The position numbers and the translations under genes are program-made. A stretch of DNA of 64,000 nucleotides from Escherichia coli (lineage in GTDB: Bacteria > Pseudomonadota > Gammaproteobacteria > Enterobacterales > Enterobacteriaceae): the NCBI RefSeq assembly GCF_003018255.1, contig NZ_CP027440.1; one strand, 5' to 3'. How positions within the stretch are numbered: the first letter of the stretch is position 1; every line of letters begins with the position of its first letter. The notes beneath the pieces were generated by a model. That model saw nothing but the letters and a program-made list of their open reading frames with translations, was not told the DNA's origin and did not search any database. Shown here in pieces: positions 35,969-43,570 of the stretch.

Positions 35969-36691
35969 ATGAATGCCGAAAAATCGCCGGTAAACCATAA
36001 CGTAGACCACGAAGAGATCGCTAAATTTGAAGCTGTCGCCTCCCGCTGGTGGGATCTTGAAGGTGAGTTCAAACCGCTGCACCGCATTAACCCGCTGCGT
36101 CTGGGCTATATTGCCGAGCGTGCTGGCGGTTTATTTGGCAAAAAGGTGCTCGATGTCGGTTGTGGCGGCGGCATTCTGGCCGAGAGTATGGCGCGCGAAG
36201 GTGCGACGGTGACCGGTCTGGATATGGGCTTTGAGCCATTGCAGGTGGCAAAGCTGCACGCGCTGGAAAGCGGCATTCAGGTGGATTACGTGCAGGAAAC
36301 CGTGGAAGAGCACGCGGCAAAACATGCCGGGCAGTATGATGTGGTGACCTGCATGGAGATGCTGGAGCACGTCCCCGATCCGCAGTCAGTGGTCAGAGCC
36401 TGTGCGCAACTGGTGAAACCGGGCGGCGATGTCTTTTTCTCGACGCTTAACCGCAACGGCAAGTCATGGCTGATGGCGGTGGTTGGCGCGGAATATATTT
36501 TGCGCATGGTGCCCAAAGGCACGCATGATGTGAAGAAGTTTATTAAACCGGCAGAGCTGCTGGGCTGGGTGGATCAGACCAGTCTTAAAGAGCGACATAT
36601 AACCGGGTTACATTACAACCCGATCACTAATTCCTTTAAGCTCGGCCCCGGCGTGGATGTGAACTATATGCTGCACACGCAGAATAAGTGA
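35969..36691 (+). CDS. ubiG: UbiG, ubiquinone biosynthesis O-methyltransferase
   Basis: Start set at [10 protein letters not shown] (240 aa); SAM-binding motif VLDVGCGGG. Confidence 0.9.
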
Positions 36692-36699
36692 GGTTGTTG

Positions 36700-36830
36700 T
36701 TTGGATTCATCCGGCAACCGCGCCAATGCCTGATGCGACGCTTGCCGCGTCTTATCAGGCCTACAAATGCTCTCCGTAGGCCTGATAAGGCGTTTACGCC
36801 GCATCCGGCAATAGTGATGGTCAGACAGCG
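36700..36830. repeat. REP-type palindromic element cluster between ubiG and yfaL
   Basis: Repeated GCCTGATGCGACGCTTGCCGCGTCTTATCAGGCCTAC / GCCTGATAAGGCGTTTACGCCGCATCCGGCA units. Confidence 0.6.
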
Positions 36831-36831
36831 A

Positions 36832-39800
36832 TTACCATTTCACCGTCATCGACAAAAACCCTGCCGTCTGGGCAAAATCATCACTCCCTTTCTGCCACGC
36901 CACGCTGCCGCGCAGGGACACTCGCTGACTGATATTGCCCGTGACTCCCACTTTTATTTCACCCCGTTGCTTCACCCCATCGTCACTGATAGTGCTGCCA
37001 TCTTCTTCAATTTCCGTCGCATGGGGATCGTGATAATAATTCAGATCTAATGTTGGTATGACATGAACAGCGGTACGCCATTCGCTGTGTAAACCCAGCC
37101 GCGTCTGAATATCATCACCCTGCGATTGTGACACGCGCGCATGGTTAGCGGCGGTAAAATCATCCTGCTGCACGCCCTGATAAATCACCTGCGCCTGCGG
37201 TTCAATCACCACACCACGCCCCGGTAACCATTGATACCCGGCTTCCAGCGAGGCGATAATCCCCGACGAGTGGTAATGATCCACGCCATCGTCTTGTTCA
37301 GAAACATCATTGTTAAACCACGCATATTGCAGCCAGCTATCCAGCCAGACCCCCTGCTTCTGATTACCGTGCTGATACCAGCTTGAGGTCAGCCCAACGG
37401 CATAACCGTGGTTCTGGTTATCGGCGCGAGTTCCGCTCATATTCGAGCGGCTGTCGCCCTGGTTATCGCTGTAGCCACCAACAATCCCAAGCATCCACTC
37501 GCCATCATCACCCCAGTGCCTGCTAAACAGATCGCCGCTAAGCTGCACCGTAGAAGTGTCTTCATGCTGAGCCAGTTGCCCTGCCGCCGTGTAATGATAA
37601 CGCCCGCCGATAACGCGTAAATTCAGCGTCTGACCATCGCCACCAGCGTGATCGCGTCGCTCCATCACAAATGCCTGATTTGCCGCACGTAGGTTATTAA
37701 AATATCCACCAACTTTGGCATTCAACACCGGCTGGTAAGCAGGCGTAGGTCCAGGGTCGGGGGTTGGGTCGGGATCCGGCGTGGGATCAGGATCTGGAGT
37801 CGGGTCCGGATCGGGCGGCGGCGTCGGAGTGACTTCTTGCGATCGCAGATACCAGTCATTGTTATCTTCCACCAGCGTATAGTCATACGCCCCCATATTG
37901 ACGTAGCCGCTTCCTGCCAGACGGAACTGCGCATTGTTTTGAAACTGCGTGGGATCAGCTGCGAAATCAACCACTTTAATACCTGTAGATGTCGGCTCAC
38001 CAATACCCGTAATGGGGTTAATTACCACGGCCGTGTTGCCAGCAGTATTACCGTTCAATACCAGTTGGTCACTTGCCGAGTCATCGCCGTTTAATTCGCT
38101 GTCGAGCAGTAGCGTACCGCCGCCGGTATAATCACCATTTACCGTCAGCGTGTCGCCAGCGACGCCATTTTGCAGGCTAATCGCACCGGACGTATTGGTC
38201 AGATTGCCATTAACCGTCACGTCGGAAAGATAAGTCAGGCTGTCAGTTTCAAGGTTGGTATTAAGCTCGCCTGTCAGCGTCACGCCATCGGTGGCATTCA
38301 CCAACGTACCGTCGCCGCTAAACAGCGAGGCATCCAGCACCTGGTTCGTATCCTGCTGCGTCAATCGCAACACAGTACCATCGGTTATGTCGATATCGCC
38401 GCCAGAGGTGGCATCGATTGAGCGAATATCCTGATTTTGCCCGGTTTCAAAAACACCGTCTTCCCCCACCCACAGTGAAGAAACATAAGGAATAATATTC
38501 TCCGCTTCACCTTTTAGCGTTCCGTCCTCCACACGTACCGCAGACGTCGCAGTGCCGCTGGCGGTCAACTCCAGCGTACCGCCGCCACTTTTAGTCAACG
38601 TGCTTACGCTATCCAGTTGTTGCCCGGTACTATCCGCCATCAACCCGCCCCATTGCGTATCTACGCCATCCTCAACGTGTATTTCGCCATCAGCGCGCAT
38701 TTCAATATTCCTGCCCTGACCTGTTGTAGCCGAGCGAGTGTCAACATCAGTCGTCACATCCATTTCACTGTGTTGTTGGGGATCTGTGAAGATCACTGAA
38801 CGGTTGTAACTTGTGTCCCCCAATTGCGAATTATCGCTGACTTCAAGCGTACCGGAGGCGATTTGCGTATTACCGAGATAACCGTTGTTATTCGCCAGCG
38901 TTACGCGCTGATCCCCCGCATTAATGACGACATAAACGCCATTCTGGCTGGCATCACTGCCGCCAATATGTAAATCATCGCCACTGCTGATATCAACGAC
39001 ATCATTACTGCCAATCACTGTCCCCCCGCTGCCGCTGATTTGCAGACCGTCATTGTATGAGCTATCGCCATCCCAGGTGGTGAAATCAGAGAGATCCAAT
39101 ACTCCGCCATTTAGCACGATCGATTGCGGATCGCTCTGCATTGCCCGTAAATCGGCCTGATTCCCCGCTAGCGACAATACGGCGTTATCTTCCACCACAA
39201 TATCGCCGGTTAATGCCATCGACTGCGCCCCTGTCAGGAGATAGCTGCCATCTTGCGCTACCGTCAACTGTCCTTCACCCTGAATCGAGCCGGAAAAACC
39301 GCCCTGGTTTACGGTAACATTGCCGCCTGCGTCGATATTCAAAATGCCATTAGCAAAACCGGTTAATGAGTGCACAAACGTTTGTTGTGTATTGCCAACA
39401 TTCAGTTCTGCCTGATACTCAGAATGAACAGTGCTGCCGACCATCAGACCAAAGCAATCCTGCGGATCGCTCTGACAGTGCGTGTCGCCGACATTCATTA
39501 ACTCATCGCTGCGCCCCAACGTCACCTCGCCATTCTGGATACTTATCTCGCCGGTAAACGCATTATTGTCGGCATTGAGGACTAACTCTCCCGCTCCCTC
39601 TTTAACGATGACTCCCGTTCCGGCAAGAGAATCAATCGCGCCATCGTTGCTGGTATTGCCTATTACCAGCGTTTTATCGGCGGCAATGTTAAATTCAGCC
39701 ACACTATGACCGATATACATAAAGCCCCCCGCCGCTGCCGTCGCCGAATGGTCATATCCCGAGGCGCTGTTATTTTCATCAATCATCACACCATTGTTTT

Positions 39801-40596
39801 GGTCATAATTATCATCAACAGAAATATCAATAAGATACGGGGATGTGGTGCTGCTGGTATAAATTGCTCCGCCATAACCTTCTGCATAGTTATTGGTAAA
39901 GGAGGTATTATTAATTATCGTTTTTCCTGAAAGATGTGTGTTATCCGTACTATTATCCGTAACATCAATAGCGCCGCCATCCCCATCACTATAACTTGTT
40001 GATGTATATGCCTGGTTATTATTAAAAGCATCATCACTTAAATAGTCGTCATTATTGATGGTATAAATTGCACCGCCTTTGCCGTCATTAGCGATGTTAT
40101 TGTGAAATACGGCGTTAGTGACACGTAAATCGGCGGCACCGGTATCATTGGTACCGGCAGAATAGATTGCTCCGCCATAGCCTCCTGCAACATTACTGTC
40201 GAAAATAACATTCGCAAGATTTATCGTTGAGTTTTCTTTAGCAAAGATAGCCCCACCATTATTATATTCGCCACTAACCGAGTTATCAGCAAACAGGGTC
40301 ATCCCTGTTTCATTTTGTGGTGAAATCGTAAATTCAGCACTTTGCTGCAAAAATACTGCGCCACCGCTGGCATTATTGGCCATACCCGAAAAAATCAACC
40401 ATTGCCCATCCGCGATGCTCCAGTCCTGCATATTGCCCGAAAGGCTTTGCCTGCTGGCCTGACAGTTCGCTTTGATATCATATCCCTGGCATGAATCGAT
40501 GACCGCTGCGGCACCGTTACCAGAGAAAAGAGATGCAATCATTGACGGGAGTAAAGATAAATACTCCTTGCGTAGAAAGATAATCCGCATATTCAT
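36832..40596 (-). CDS. yfaL: YfaL, AIDA-I-type autotransporter adhesin
   Basis: About 1250-aa ORF with signal peptide, long beta-helical passenger with G/N/T/S-rich repeats, Pro-Thr/Pro-Asp linker and C-terminal beta-barrel ending in W. Start may be the ATG at 40590. Confidence 0.85.
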   Translation of the reverse strand: MNMRIIFLRKEYLSLLPSMIASLFSGNGAAAVIDSCQGYDIKANCQASRQSLSGNMQDWSIADGQWLIFSGMANNASGGAVFLQQSAEFTISPQNETGMTLFADNSVSGEYNNGGAIFAKENSTINLANVIFDSNVAGGYGGAIYSAGTNDTGAADLRVTNAVFHNNIANDGKGGAIYTINNDDYLSDDAFNNNQAYTSTSYSDGDGGAIDVTDNSTDNTHLSGKTIINNTSFTNNYAEGYGGAIYTSSTTSPYLIDISVDDNYDQNNGVMIDENNSASGYDHSATAAAGGFMYIGHSVAEFNIAADKTLVIGNTSNDGAIDSLAGTGVIVKEGAGELVLNADNNAFTGEISIQNGEVTLGRSDELMNVGDTHCQSDPQDCFGLMVGSTVHSEYQAELNVGNTQQTFVHSLTGFANGILNIDAGGNVTVNQGGFSGSIQGEGQLTVAQDGSYLLTGAQSMALTGDIVVEDNAVLSLAGNQADLRAMQSDPQSIVLNGGVLDLSDFTTWDGDSSYNDGLQISGSGGTVIGSNDVVDISSGDDLHIGGSDASQNGVYVVINAGDQRVTLANNNGYLGNTQIASGTLEVSDNSQLGDTSYNRSVIFTDPQQHSEMDVTTDVDTRSATTGQGRNIEMRADGEIHVEDGVDTQWGGLMADSTGQQLDSVSTLTKSGGGTLELTASGTATSAVRVEDGTLKGEAENIIPYVSSLWVGEDGVFETGQNQDIRSIDATSGGDIDITDGTVLRLTQQDTNQVLDASLFSGDGTLVNATDGVTLTGELNTNLETDSLTYLSDVTVNGNLTNTSGAISLQNGVAGDTLTVNGDYTGGGTLLLDSELNGDDSASDQLVLNGNTAGNTAVVINPITGIGEPTSTGIKVVDFAADPTQFQNNAQFRLAGSGYVNMGAYDYTLVEDNNDWYLRSQEVTPTPPPDPDPTPDPDPTPDPDPTPDPGPTPAYQPVLNAKVGGYFNNLRAANQAFVMERRDHAGGDGQTLNLRVIGGRYHYTAAGQLAQHEDTSTVQLSGDLFSRHWGDDGEWMLGIVGGYSDNQGDSRSNMSGTRADNQNHGYAVGLTSSWYQHGNQKQGVWLDSWLQYAWFNNDVSEQDDGVDHYHSSGIIASLEAGYQWLPGRGVVIEPQAQVIYQGVQQDDFTAANHARVSQSQGDDIQTRLGLHSEWRTAVHVIPTLDLNYYHDPHATEIEEDGSTISDDGVKQRGEIKVGVTGNISQRVSLRGSVAWQKGSDDFAQTAGFLSMTVKW

Positions 40597-41122
40597 CTAA
40601 CCATCATTTTCTATAAGATGGCGTATTTAATCGCATTATGCGATATAGGGTATTTTTCTTTTGTAAATTCTGCCCCTGATGTAATAACTATTTTGTTATT
40701 ATCTGATAATTAATTTAGATGCATCACAATTCAAATTAATAACTTTAAGGTAAATCGGTTATATTTAAACTAAATTAAAGCAATAAATAATATTCTTATA
40801 ATAAATACAAAAGTAACAAATTGGCTTAGTATTTAACAATAACCGCATAGAAAACAACCATTTCGACATCAACAATCGCTTACATTCGCTTATATATTGA
40901 CCACAACTGATACATCAGATTATGTGATGACTCGTGCTTAGATCAATTTTTGCAATCATTAGCAAAAAGATTAATAAACCATCTATATCAATTTATCCAA
41001 CCTATTCTGCCGTTCAAGAAATCACCGAACAGTTATTTTTAACAAATTTTTCTCTTCCCATTGACTTTCCCGGACACCTTGTCTGACCTAAGGTGCGCGA
41101 AAGCCACTTTTTCCTTCCTGAG

Positions 41123-41143
41123 TTATCCACAAAGTTATGCACT
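41123..41143. promoter_or_regulatory. DnaA box(es) in the nrdAB promoter region
   Basis: TTATCCACA (consensus DnaA box) followed by TTATGCACT about 150 bp upstream of nrdA. Confidence 0.55.
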
Positions 41144-41160
41144 TGCAAGAGGGCCATTTT

Positions 41161-41208
41161 CACACTATCTTGCAGTGAATCCCAAACATACCCCCTATAT
41201 ATAGTGTT
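41161..41208. promoter_or_regulatory. Tandem NrdR boxes of the nrdAB promoter
   Basis: CACACTATCTTGCAGTG and CCCTATATATAGTGTT, two palindromic NrdR-type boxes with the spacing typical of class I RNR promoters. Confidence 0.65.
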
Positions 41209-41284
41209 CTAAGCAGCTTCCCTCACTACAGGTAGTCTGCATGAAACTATTGCGGAAAGAATTCCAAAAACAGGTACGACATAC

Positions 41285-43570
41285 ATGAATCAGAATCTGC
41301 TGGTGACAAAGCGCGACGGTAGCACAGAGCGCATCAATCTCGACAAAATCCATCGCGTTCTGGATTGGGCGGCAGAAGGACTGCATAACGTTTCGATTTC
41401 CCAGGTCGAACTGCGCTCCCACATTCAGTTTTATGACGGTATCAAGACCTCTGACATCCACGAAACCATTATCAAGGCTGCCGCAGACCTGATCTCCCGT
41501 GATGCGCCGGATTATCAGTATCTCGCCGCGCGCCTGGCGATCTTCCACCTGCGTAAAAAAGCCTACGGCCAGTTTGAGCCGCCTGCGCTGTACGACCACG
41601 TGGTGAAAATGGTCGAGATGGGCAAATACGATAATCATCTGCTGGAAGACTACACGGAAGAAGAGTTCAAGCAGATGGACACGTTTATCGATCACGACCG
41701 TGATATGACCTTCTCTTATGCTGCCGTTAAGCAGCTGGAAGGCAAATATCTGGTACAGAACCGCGTGACCGGCGAAATCTACGAAAGCGCCCAGTTCCTT
41801 TATATTCTGGTTGCCGCGTGCCTGTTCTCGAACTACCCGCGTGAAACGCGCCTGCAATACGTGAAGCGTTTTTACGACGCGGTTTCCACATTTAAAATTT
41901 CGCTGCCGACGCCAATCATGTCCGGCGTGCGTACCCCGACTCGTCAGTTCAGCTCCTGCGTACTGATCGAGTGCGGCGACAGCCTGGATTCCATCAACGC
42001 CACCTCCAGCGCGATTGTTAAATACGTTTCCCAGCGTGCCGGGATCGGCATCAACGCCGGGCGTATTCGTGCGTTGGGTAGCCCGATTCGCGGTGGCGAA
42101 GCATTCCACACCGGCTGTATTCCGTTTTACAAACATTTCCAGACAGCGGTGAAATCCTGCTCTCAGGGCGGTGTGCGCGGCGGTGCGGCAACACTGTTCT
42201 ACCCGATGTGGCATCTGGAAGTGGAAAGCCTGCTGGTGTTGAAAAACAACCGTGGGGTTGAAGGCAACCGCGTGCGTCATATGGACTACGGGGTACAAAT
42301 CAACAAACTGATGTATACCCGTCTGCTGAAAGGTGAAGATATCACCCTGTTCAGCCCGTCCGACGTACCGGGGCTGTACGACGCGTTCTTCGCCGATCAG
42401 GAAGAGTTTGAACGCCTGTACACCAAATATGAGAAAGACGACAGCATCCGCAAGCAGCGTGTGAAAGCCGTTGAGCTGTTCTCGCTGATGATGCAGGAAC
42501 GTGCGTCTACCGGTCGTATCTATATTCAGAACGTAGACCACTGCAACACCCACAGCCCGTTTGATCCGGCTATTGCACCAGTGCGCCAGTCTAACCTGTG
42601 CCTGGAAATCGCCCTACCGACCAAACCACTGAACGACGTCAACGACGAGAACGGTGAAATCGCGCTGTGTACGCTTTCTGCTTTCAACCTGGGCGCAATT
42701 AACAGCCTGGATGAACTGGAAGAGCTGGCAATTCTGGCGGTTCGCGCACTCGACGCACTGCTGGATTATCAGGATTACCCGATCCCGGCCGCTAAACGTG
42801 GAGCGATGGGGCGTCGTACGCTGGGTATTGGTGTGATCAACTTCGCTTACTACCTGGCGAAGCACGGTAAACGCTACTCCGACGGCAGCGCCAACAACCT
42901 GACGCATAAAACCTTCGAAGCCATTCAGTATTACCTGCTGAAAGCGTCTAATGAGCTGGCGAAAGAGCAAGGCGCGTGCCCGTGGTTTAACGAAACCACT
43001 TACGCGAAAGGGATCCTGCCGATCGATACCTATAAGAAAGATCTGGATGCCATCGCTAATGAGCCGCTGCATTACGACTGGGAAGCACTGCGTGAGTCAA
43101 TCAAAACGCACGGCCTGCGTAACTCCACGCTTTCTGCTCTGATGCCGTCAGAGACCTCTTCGCAGATCTCTAACGCCACTAACGGTATTGAACCGCCGCG
43201 TGGTTACGTCAGCATCAAAGCGTCGAAAGACGGTATTCTGCGCCAGGTGGTGCCGGACTACGAGCATCTGCACGACGCCTATGAACTGCTGTGGGAAATG
43301 CCGGGTAACGATGGCTATCTGCAACTGGTGGGTATCATGCAGAAATTTATCGATCAGTCGATCTCTGCTAACACCAACTACGATCCGTCACGCTTCCCGT
43401 CAGGAAAAGTGCCGATGCAGCAACTGCTGAAAGACCTGCTCACCGCCTACAAATTCGGGGTCAAAACGCTGTATTATCAGAACACCCGTGACGGTGCTGA
43501 AGACGCACAAGACGATCTGGTACCGTCAATCCAGGACGATGGCTGCGAAAGCGGCGCATGTAAGATCTGA
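41285..43570 (+). CDS. nrdA: Ribonucleoside-diphosphate reductase 1, alpha subunit
   Basis: 761-aa ORF beginning [26 protein letters not shown] (ATP-cone), with the class I RNR catalytic core. Confidence 0.95.

Follow-up and report, generated by a model that had tools for sequence, protein, structure and literature searches.

A lineage-variable proline-rich tract, probably a spacer, in the YfaL/EhaC autotransporter of Escherichia coli

A stretch of Escherichia coli DNA of 64,000 nucleotides (contig NZ_CP027440.1; the whole stretch analyzed is called the window below) contains a short proline-coding tandem repeat within a gene for a surface autotransporter, which raises the question of what such a repeat does in the protein and how readily its length changes. 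A sequence-only reading of this DNA had described imperfect 12-bp units at positions 37743-37825, lying between the passenger and the barrel of the yfaL product, and had considered them prone to slippage and likely to differ in length between strains. The analysis presented here leads to a real but ordinary feature, a lineage-variable tract of Asp/Thr-Pro dipeptides in YfaL/EhaC that is probably a spacer.

The repeat lies in an ORF of 1254 codons plus a stop codon on the minus strand (36832-40596), whose product matched the NCBIfam equivalog NF007285 with 2717.8 bits (cut-off 1459), residues 3-1254 aligning with profile positions 1-1250. The gene order gyrA-ubiG-yfaL-nrdA is that of K-12, the region being collinear over 10 kb with K-12 DH1 and with the RefSeq annotation there, and every E. 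coli match at the locus bears the RefSeq annotation yfaL. The gene is therefore yfaL/ehaC, encoding an AIDA-I-type (type Va) autotransporter adhesin, and the assignment of the repeat to yfaL holds. Since the NF007285 alignment begins at residue 3, and the RefSeq CDS in a 99%-identical strain has 3759 nt, translation probably begins at Met3 (position 40590), which gives a protein of 1252 aa. The N-terminus (MRIIFLRKEYLSLLPSMIASLFS…), where a Sec signal peptide would be expected, resembles its K-12 counterpart. A second gene or an RNA at the repeat, on either strand, was ruled out: the Rfam search of 36500-41300 returned no matches, and the only ORFs overlapping the repeat were short and spurious.

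The repeat encodes a tract of X-Pro dipeptides, TPTPPPDPDPTPDPDPTPDPDPTPDPGPTP, that occupies positions 37741-37830 of the minus strand (90 nt, 30 residues, ORF residues 923-952), the minus-strand translation of 37741-37836 being EVTPTPPPDPDPTPDPDPTPDPDPTPDPGPTP within the 1254-codon ORF. Its GC content is 71%, compared with 50.5% for the whole yfaL gene, and proline makes up 47% of its residues. The core consists of three DPDPTP units of 18 nt each and identical peptide sequence (37759-37812, minus strand), and the ends of the tract are TPTPPP and DPGPTP. At the DNA level, the three units are pairwise identical at only 13-14 of 18 nt, and all the differences fall in third codon positions, which indicates that the repeat is maintained by selection on the peptide. 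The proline codons are mixed (six CCG, four CCC, four CCT and two CCA). Relative to K-12, 10 codons differ synonymously and 3 non-synonymously, the latter all outside the core, and proline stands at alternate positions nearly without exception across the alleles compared.

The self-identity of the tract at a shift of 18 nt was 0.65 (calculated on 37743-37832) versus a background of 0.26 ± 0.055, a value that none of 6391 other 90-nt windows sampled in the 64 kb matched. In agreement with this periodicity, Tandem Repeats Finder reported a period of 18 with 2.6 copies and 75% matches, and a repeat search gave three 21-nt copies at 18-nt spacing with 71-76% identity; the longest exact repeat inside the tract is 8 nt. 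Each DPDPTP unit thus corresponds to one DNA period of 18 nt, and each X-Pro dipeptide to a sub-period of 6 nt. The 12-nt unit proposed earlier was dropped, since self-identity at that shift was only 0.50, compared with 0.65 at 18 nt and 0.54 at 6 nt. Both the translation and a repeat far above chance confirmed that the tract exists where it had been placed, although its high end had been drawn slightly short of the codon-exact limit.

Upstream of the tract in the protein lies the autochaperone or junction domain (37837-38232, minus strand; ORF residues about 789-920), identified by matches to IcsA (3ML3/5KE1) and AIDA-I (4MEE) and supported by PF03212/PF18883, precomputed on close homologues. 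The domain ends, directly before the tract, with the motif WYLRSQ (37837-37854, minus strand). This motif aligns with WYLTSQ, the end of the IcsA autochaperone structure 3ML3, and W183, Y184, L185 and S187 were invariant in 12 homologues. Downstream, a few residues past the tract, begins a predicted pore-plugging α-helix (37675-37719, minus strand; ORF residues 960-974), followed by the β-barrel translocator (36835-37629, minus strand; PF03797 at residues 993-1232, E 4.9e-34). An AlphaFold2 model reproduced this order, with strands at query residues 172-188, where the predicted β strands of the upstream domain end, a coil with pLDDT below 50 at 189-225, the helix at 228-242 and barrel strands at 258-521 with pLDDT 80-95. 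The top Foldseek matches of the model were 4MEE, EspP, BrkA, Hbp and NalP. The tract hence joins the last autochaperone β-hairpin (…DWYLRSQ) to the α-helix that plugs the 12-stranded barrel, so the earlier placement between passenger and barrel stands in this refined form. In the model itself the tract is a low-confidence coil, which is compatible with a rod and with a floppy linker alike.

Length variation was surveyed in 120 complete genomes of E. coli, drawn as two sets of 60. The tract had the length of the window allele in 78 genomes, that is, in 65%, and it was shorter by 18 nt in 28, longer by 6 nt in 6, shorter by 24 nt in 4, and shorter by 6 nt and by 12 nt in one each; of the remaining two, one matched in part and the other had lost 168 nt. 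Tract length therefore differed from that of the window in 40 of 120 genomes, ranging from -24 to +6 nt, and in all 16 alleles from complete genomes whose sequences were checked, the difference mapped to the tract and consisted of in-frame multiples of 6 nt. Escherichia as a whole has tracts of all nine even-numbered lengths between 20 and 36 residues, both limits included. The polymorphism predicted from the sequence alone is thus real, the comparison of yfaL alleles having revealed a spread of lengths rather than one uniform length.

The variation follows allele lineages. All 13 sampled window-type alleles had one tract length, and 1916 genomes were at least 99% identical to K-12 across 490 nt, which implies that they carry no indel there. 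Allele pairs with up to 6 differences in 660 nt of flanking sequence were always equal in tract length, and at 9-11 differences the gap can reach 10 aa; flank divergence and length difference showed no overall correlation (Spearman -0.20, p 0.06). Tract length is, then, stable within allele lineages and varies between them, and the recurrence of equal lengths in different backgrounds is due to either homoplasy or recombination.

The anatomy of a few indels points to how the changes arise. They sit at microhomologies of 8-11 nt: the 17MR471 allele is identical to that of S1-SRL-01-C except for the loss of a single 18-nt unit, flanked by two copies of GATCCTGATCC, and the allele of VTB97022v has a 168-nt in-frame deletion that fuses two 'DPT' microhomologies. 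Between E. coli lineages, the tract gains or loses 6 nt (one X-Pro) or 18 nt (one unit) at a time and stays in frame. From these cases, we infer that the changes may arise when replication occasionally slips, or a segment is deleted through microhomology, between direct repeats of 8-11 nt; selection presumably acts on the peptide pattern and not on one exact length. Because the scrambled synonymous codons make the tract a poor repeat at the DNA level, slippage events should be rare, and length consequently stable within lineages.

A quite different behavior would be that of a contingency locus, in which frequent slipped-strand mispairing switches YfaL on and off or alters it quickly. A tandem repeat within a surface adhesin gene would suit such a locus, and a few draft-assembly proteins (P0037 and others) are frameshifted inside the tract, where many draft contigs also terminate. 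Nevertheless, a contingency locus should contain a long run of near-identical short units, and neither the 71-76% identity of the copies nor a longest exact repeat of 8 nt fits this expectation. It should also show frame-switching changes among close relatives, whereas all the sequence-checked alleles kept the frame, pairs with flank divergence of up to 1% never differed in length, and the large K-12-like group is free of indels. Phase variation was rejected on the grounds of the degenerate copies, the in-frame indels and the lineage-constant lengths, and the contingency-locus explanation, largely refuted in this analysis, is highly improbable; the process is probably slow slippage rather than phase variation. 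As for the tract being prone to slippage, the variable length was foreseen correctly and the rate was overstated.

Several further observations concern the DNA of the tract. A hairpin or cruciform, suggested by the 10-nt palindrome CCG-GAT-CCG-G, was rejected, since single-stranded folding of both tract strands was no better than that of shuffled sequences (z -0.16 and +1.13) and the sole inverted repeat found was weak, with its 14-nt arms on either side of the tract. The only canonical G-quadruplex motif of the 64-kb window, GGGTCGGGGGTTGGGTCGGG, lies at 37754-37773 on the plus strand, that is, on the yfaL template strand, and is an allele-specific by-product of the CCC proline codons. In Shigella sonnei, contigs end at the tract in yfaL sequence, with no IS termini and with upstream ends scattered over more than 20 codons; an IS insertion behind these breaks was rejected on both grounds, and sequencing or assembly dropout is the more likely cause.

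With regard to function, the tract is probably an acidic X-Pro spacer or stalk of YfaL/EhaC whose length varies in frame by rare slippage. An extended spacer is the most likely role and is compatible with the low-confidence coil of the model, and proline at every second position should permit neither helix nor sheet. The tract would leave the barrel at its extracellular opening and, as a semi-rigid stalk resistant to proteases, keep the folded passenger clear of both barrel and LPS layer, with room for the passenger to fold after translocation. A literature search found no experiment on the YfaL tract and nothing specific to it in the full texts.

Other explanations were weighed against this one. 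The tract might be neutral low-complexity filler, a selectively unimportant proline-rich expansion drifting in length at an insertion-tolerant site. A survey of 137 cluster representatives of the family, found with a tract-deleted query, gave linkers of 0-110 aa at this site (median 17 aa, less than 15 aa in 63 of them), AIDA-I has no proline-rich tract, and Escherichia tolerates all nine length classes. These data indeed suggest that a long proline-rich stalk is not essential for secretion, many relatives having short linkers, and that no particular length between 20 and 36 aa is critical in Escherichia. However, the (DPDPTP)3 peptide has remained intact despite heavy synonymous divergence within and between alleles, the alternation of proline is almost invariable, and similar tracts of 20-55 aa (D/E/T/N/G-Pro) directly follow WYL[TR]S in homologues that share 27-35% identity and belong to other genera, one of them from Pseudomonas citronellolis; we therefore consider neutrality unlikely. 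We also regard as rather improbable that the tract is an exposed immunodominant repeat, comparable to the GGFGP/PQP repeats of pertactin, whose copy number is varied by host antibody pressure. A surface-proximal proline-rich tandem repeat of strain-variable copy number, next to a strongly diversified yfaL passenger, would agree with this proposal, as does the concentration of pertactin variation in the proline-rich regions R1 and R2 (PMC3966384, PMC12994607). Against it, length is constant in large lineages and a single length is shared by most sampled genomes, the core peptide has been conserved, which argues against diversifying selection on the tract sequence, the tract lies at the membrane-proximal base, where it is probably buried beneath LPS and passenger, and the literature search found no immunological data for YfaL.

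That the tract serves as a hinge for shedding the passenger from the barrel, through its acid-labile Asp-Pro bonds or as a protease target, appears the least credible of these explanations. No peptide bond is more acid-labile than Asp-Pro, of which the window allele contains seven, and a site between passenger and anchor would be well placed for release; yet these bonds hydrolyze slowly at 37 °C, X-Pro sequences are mostly protease-resistant, and homologous tracts frequently have Glu, Thr, Val or Gln in place of Asp. In addition, the group 8 autotransporters, YfaL among them, have been described as anchored in the outer membrane (PMC9289746). A last proposal, to which we likewise assign a low probability, is that tract length is tuned in each lineage to the surface layer or the passenger allele and, independently, that the G-quadruplex motif affects replication or transcription of yfaL. 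If length were tuned to the thickness of the LPS core, O-antigen or capsule, the length of the stalk would decide between exposure and masking of YfaL; purifying selection on the peptide pattern alongside discrete X-Pro length steps would then be accounted for, as would the single length of the window-type passenger family in the 13 sampled genomes. If the motif acted in this way, it would contribute to contig breaks in short-read assemblies.

The tract is of small importance to biology at large, and its consequences are mostly practical. The polymorphism in its length is stable and marks lineages, and is not a switch; in-frame indels of 6 and 18 nt are to be expected in gene-by-gene typing and in pseudogene calls at yfaL, and breaks in this GC-rich tract are frequent in short-read assemblies. 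YfaL residues 786-1250, tract included, are enough for the display of a foreign passenger (PMC7138890), so that surface-display vectors of this type hold a natural spacer, which could be tuned between about 20 and 36 residues by means of existing natural alleles.

Among known systems, the solved structure nearest to the YfaL C-terminal unit is the AIDA-I transport unit 4MEE (sequence E 7e-39; TM 0.91 and rmsd 2.0 Å for the model), which presents the autochaperone end, linker, pore helix and 12-stranded barrel in the same order but, in place of the 30-residue X-Pro tract of YfaL, has only a short proline-poor segment (…HLPTSDTRQYRPENGSY…). About a fifth of the related autotransporters (26 of the 137 representatives, 19%) have a proline-rich linker of at least 15 aa at this site. 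PF05887, a family of procyclin-type EP/DP repeats, was precomputed on the distant YfaL-family homologues P0108, P0116, P0118 and P0119 and gave no match in the window YfaL at E ≤ 0.001; procyclins are surface coat proteins of trypanosomes, and the likeness is one of acidic X-Pro dipeptide composition alone. According to PMC5413942, which cites Köhler et al. 2010, the proline-rich linker of TonB forms an extended polyproline-II rod, and this alternating Glu-Pro/Lys-Pro tract of an envelope protein, which spans a compartment, provides a functional analogy for a rigid spacer. The TonB linker is unrelated to YfaL, periplasmic instead of extracellular, and longer, with acidic and basic halves, so that the resemblance is compositional, without homology.

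Pertactin of Bordetella, a classical autotransporter, shares with YfaL proline-rich tandem peptide repeats (R1, GGxxP; R2, PQP) whose copy number varies between strains or species (PMC3966384, PMC12994607), and six length classes, from -24 to +6 nt, were found for the YfaL tract. In pertactin, however, the repeats are loops of the β-helical passenger and are tied to vaccine-driven antigenic change, whereas the YfaL tract is a linker located after the autochaperone, with a conserved core peptide and lineage-stable lengths. An architectural parallel is TibA, the self-associating AIDA-I-type autotransporter of ETEC, in which a proline-rich domain of about 50 residues (627-677) lies between the junction and the membrane domain (PMC3835316), the very slot that the YfaL tract occupies between autochaperone and membrane domain. 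TibA is another protein with another passenger family, and the two are likened by domain placement, not by unit sequence; in this respect, YfaL/EhaC, a reference E. coli adhesin, would carry a proline-rich stalk of the kind described for TibA.

A single long open reading frame of 1254 codons on the minus strand (36832-40596) was matched from residue 3 onwards by the NCBIfam equivalog model NF007285 (2718 bits, cut-off 1459), and it carries a Pfam autotransporter beta-domain at residues 993-1232. The gene order gyrA-ubiG-yfaL-nrdA is the same as in K-12, and in 5419 of the 5426 complete E. coli genomes the matching region carries the RefSeq annotation yfaL. On these grounds the frame is YfaL/EhaC, a member of the outer-membrane-anchored 'Group 8' adhesins (PMC9289746) whose overexpression promotes biofilm, according to the passage of PMC7251025 that cites Roux et al. 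2005, and whose residues 786-1250, comprising autochaperone, tract and barrel, suffice for surface display of a foreign enzyme (PMC7138890). The mechanical frame begins MNMRIIF… (40588-40596); because residue 3 is where the family model starts to align, and a 99%-identical strain has a RefSeq coding sequence of 1252 aa, the true start is probably the third codon, Met3, at 40590.

Translation placed a codon-exact, proline-rich tract of 30 residues at 37741-37830 on the minus strand, with 37741-37836 reading EVTPTPPPDPDPTPDPDPTPDPDPTPDPGPTP. The self-identity of this tract at a shift of 18 nt was 65%, versus a background of 26 ± 5.5% (90-nt windows, 64 kb), and it was matched by none of the other windows among 6391 sampled, so that the repeat is not due to chance. 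Tandem Repeats Finder returned a period of 18 with 2.6 copies and 75% matches, and a repeat search found three 21-nt copies at 18-nt spacing with 71-76% identity. The sequence-only reading had proposed a proline-rich tandem repeat in yfaL made of 12-nt units; the repeat is borne out by translation and by both analyses of periodicity, but the unit is wrong, since self-identity was 0.50 at 12 nt versus 0.65 at 18 nt and 0.54 at 6 nt. The repeat is instead built on DPDPTP (18 nt), itself a series of X-Pro dipeptides (6 nt). As a DNA-level repeat the tract is poor: its longest exact repeat is 8 nt, and its Pro codons are mixed (CCG 6, CCC 4, CCT 4, CCA 2). No overlapping Rfam family and no credible second open reading frame were found across the tract.

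The three DPDPTP units are identical in peptide and share 13-14 of 18 nt, all their differences lying at third codon positions, and over 32 codons the window and K-12 alleles differ by 10 synonymous and 3 non-synonymous changes, none of the latter inside the (DPDPTP)3 core. The third-position scrambling between units and the location of the non-synonymous changes outside the core therefore show that the peptide pattern is held by purifying selection. Among the fetched alleles the only break of the alternate-Pro pattern in this core was found in O157 strain 9000, where codon 20 of the tract is changed from Pro to Gln (CCG to CAG, …DPTQDPDP…). The CCC Pro codons also give rise to a predicted G-quadruplex motif, GGGTCGGGGGTTGGGTCGGG, detected by motif scan on the plus strand at 37754-37773, which is the only canonical one (four G3+ runs, loops of at most 7 nt) on either strand of the entire 64-kb window; the window, FDAARGOS_497 and Nissle-derived alleles have this motif, a few others have a variant of it, and K-12, BL21 and O157 lack it.

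Length variation was tabulated from match spans by sampling the 5419 ranked complete genomes at even intervals, 60 genomes with the window allele as query and 60 with the K-12 allele. Of these 120 genomes, 78 had the tract length of the window, 28 were shorter by 18 nt, 6 longer by 6 nt and 4 shorter by 24 nt, and one each was shorter by 6 nt, shorter by 12 nt, a partial match and a 168-nt deletion. In all 16 fetched and sequence-checked alleles the differences were inside the tract and were in-frame multiples of 6 nt, and when protein database variants were included the distance from WYLRSQ, the end of the autochaperone, to AYQP, just after the tract, took every even value from 20 to 36 residues in Escherichia, the longest being from a cryptic-clade Escherichia sp. 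Tract lengths thus differ among strains instead of being identical in all of them, and the polymorphism foreseen from the sequence alone therefore stands.

Tract length tracks allele lineage. It was the same in 13 of 13 sampled window-type alleles, and 1916 genomes have at least 99% identity to K-12 over 490 nt across the tract, a level at which no indel can be present. Allele pairs with at most 6 differences per 660 flanking nt always had a common length; at 9-11 differences, pairs could already be 10 residues apart. The 17MR471 allele is that of S1-SRL-01-C with a single 18-nt unit removed, a unit flanked on both sides by GATCCTGATCC; this anatomy, like that of the deletion in strain VTB97022v, fits slippage at microhomology. 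The predicted proneness to slippage is too strong as to rate, the tract looking like a degenerate repeat with occasional slippage rather than a contingency locus. In VTB97022v (NZ_CP178670.1) a 168-nt in-frame deletion fuses upstream 'AADPT' to 'PDPDPT' of the tract, with 'DPT' shared by the two sides, removing the last autochaperone beta-hairpin including WYLRSQ from a coding sequence annotated as intact; a similar junction was seen in the metagenome-assembled protein P0022. In the complete genome 14EC033 yfaL is annotated as a frameshifted pseudogene, but the tract is in frame, so that the annotated frameshift must be elsewhere. Four draft-assembly proteins run out of frame inside the tract (P0037 and three others, e.g. 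…PPDPDPTQHPILTQHPIQSPLTSRC); this could stem from genuine frameshifts or from sequencing errors in C-runs.

Breaks within the tract are frequent in short-read assemblies (draft contigs L015-L026; database proteins P0026, P0028 and P0035-P0117). One partial-protein cluster (P0026, 519 E. coli member sequences) begins YQPVLN and another (P0028, 303 Shigella sonnei members) begins APTPAYQP; the ends of dozens of S. sonnei upstream contigs are scattered 1-23 codons into the tract, and the broken ends consist of yfaL sequence and carry no IS termini. The breaks probably reflect a dropout of coverage or sequencing in this 71%-GC tract. The metagenome protein P0032 (ENA, 624 aa), in which the YfaL autochaperone and the initial portion of the tract (…TPDPEPTPDP) are followed by unrelated Asn/Lys-rich sequence with PF25833, is probably a chimeric assembly joined via Pro-rich low-complexity sequence.

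The passenger segment at about 38320-39820 gave a megablast match in just 1245 of the 5426 complete E. coli genomes, all at 99% identity or more, and K-12 is 66-74% identical over it, almost gapless, versus 95-100% in gyrA, ubiG and nrdA and 95-98% in the yfaL barrel; identity switches near 38320. The passenger is thus sharply dimorphic. This pattern points to two ancient allele families or to replacement of the passenger, and it holds more interest than the linker. In the ubiG-yfaL intergenic region, a 300-nt block (about 36521-36820) shows 89% identity and 13 gap positions against K-12, compared with 98-99% identity in the two flanking genes.

The IcsA autochaperone structure 3ML3 aligned up to its terminal WYLTSQ, equivalent to the WYLRSQ directly before the tract. 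The C-terminal 522 residues were modelled with AlphaFold2 (12-sequence alignment; mean pLDDT 70.9, barrel 80-95, autochaperone part weaker); the model predicted beta strands to query residue 188, coil with pLDDT below 50 at 189-225, corresponding to the tract, a helix at 228-242 and then barrel strands, and it superposed on the AIDA-I transport unit 4MEE with a TM of 0.91 and an rmsd of 2.0 Å, followed by the EspP, BrkA, Hbp and NalP translocators. From these alignments and this model, the tract joins the autochaperone end to the pore helix and emerges where the barrel opens to the cell exterior; its placement between passenger and barrel by the sequence-only reading was correct, the exact neighbours being the autochaperone and the alpha-helical plug. 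In homologues at only 27-35% identity, one of them from Pseudomonas citronellolis, WYL[TR]S is followed immediately by D/E/T/N/G-Pro tracts 20-55 residues long. When the C-terminal unit, stripped of the tract to avoid bias, was searched against 1.84 billion cluster representatives, 2888 relatives were retrieved; among the best 150, 137 had both required anchors (the WYL motif and RPExxxY at the pore helix start). The linkers of these 137 measure 0-110 aa (median 17), and 26 of them (19%) qualify as Pro-rich, with a length of 15 aa or more and 30% Pro or more. The site is therefore a family-wide length-variable linker, with the X-Pro tract as one recurring solution.

Direct evidence covers the position, composition, peptide conservation and recurrence of the tract at the same site, and a literature search on the YfaL tract itself found no paper describing it. 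The tract is an ordinary feature, a probable Pro-rich spacer of known kind in a well-known gene, and its length polymorphism is modest, lineage-stable and in-frame. A neutral filler is not better supported as an explanation, and recent duplication or DNA homogenisation as upkeep of the pattern is ruled out by the third-position scrambling together with the differences between the window and K-12 alleles. Neither phase variation nor a variable epitope of the pertactin kind (compare PMC3966384, PMC12994607) has better support, and the same holds for an acid- or protease-labile release hinge.

With Pro at every second position, the tract would be unable to adopt regular secondary structure and would most likely take an extended polyproline-II-like form; its 30 residues, at 3.1 Å per residue, would reach about 9 nm, which would hold the folded passenger away from the barrel rim and the LPS and give clearance for folding led by the autochaperone. 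A strict need for it is counted against by the short linkers of many relatives, including AIDA-I, and by the tolerance of all lengths of 20-36 aa. The predicted form is that reported, in a passage of PMC5413942, for the Pro-rich linker of TonB. In the AIDA-I transport unit the stretch equivalent to the 30-residue X-Pro tract of YfaL is short with few prolines.
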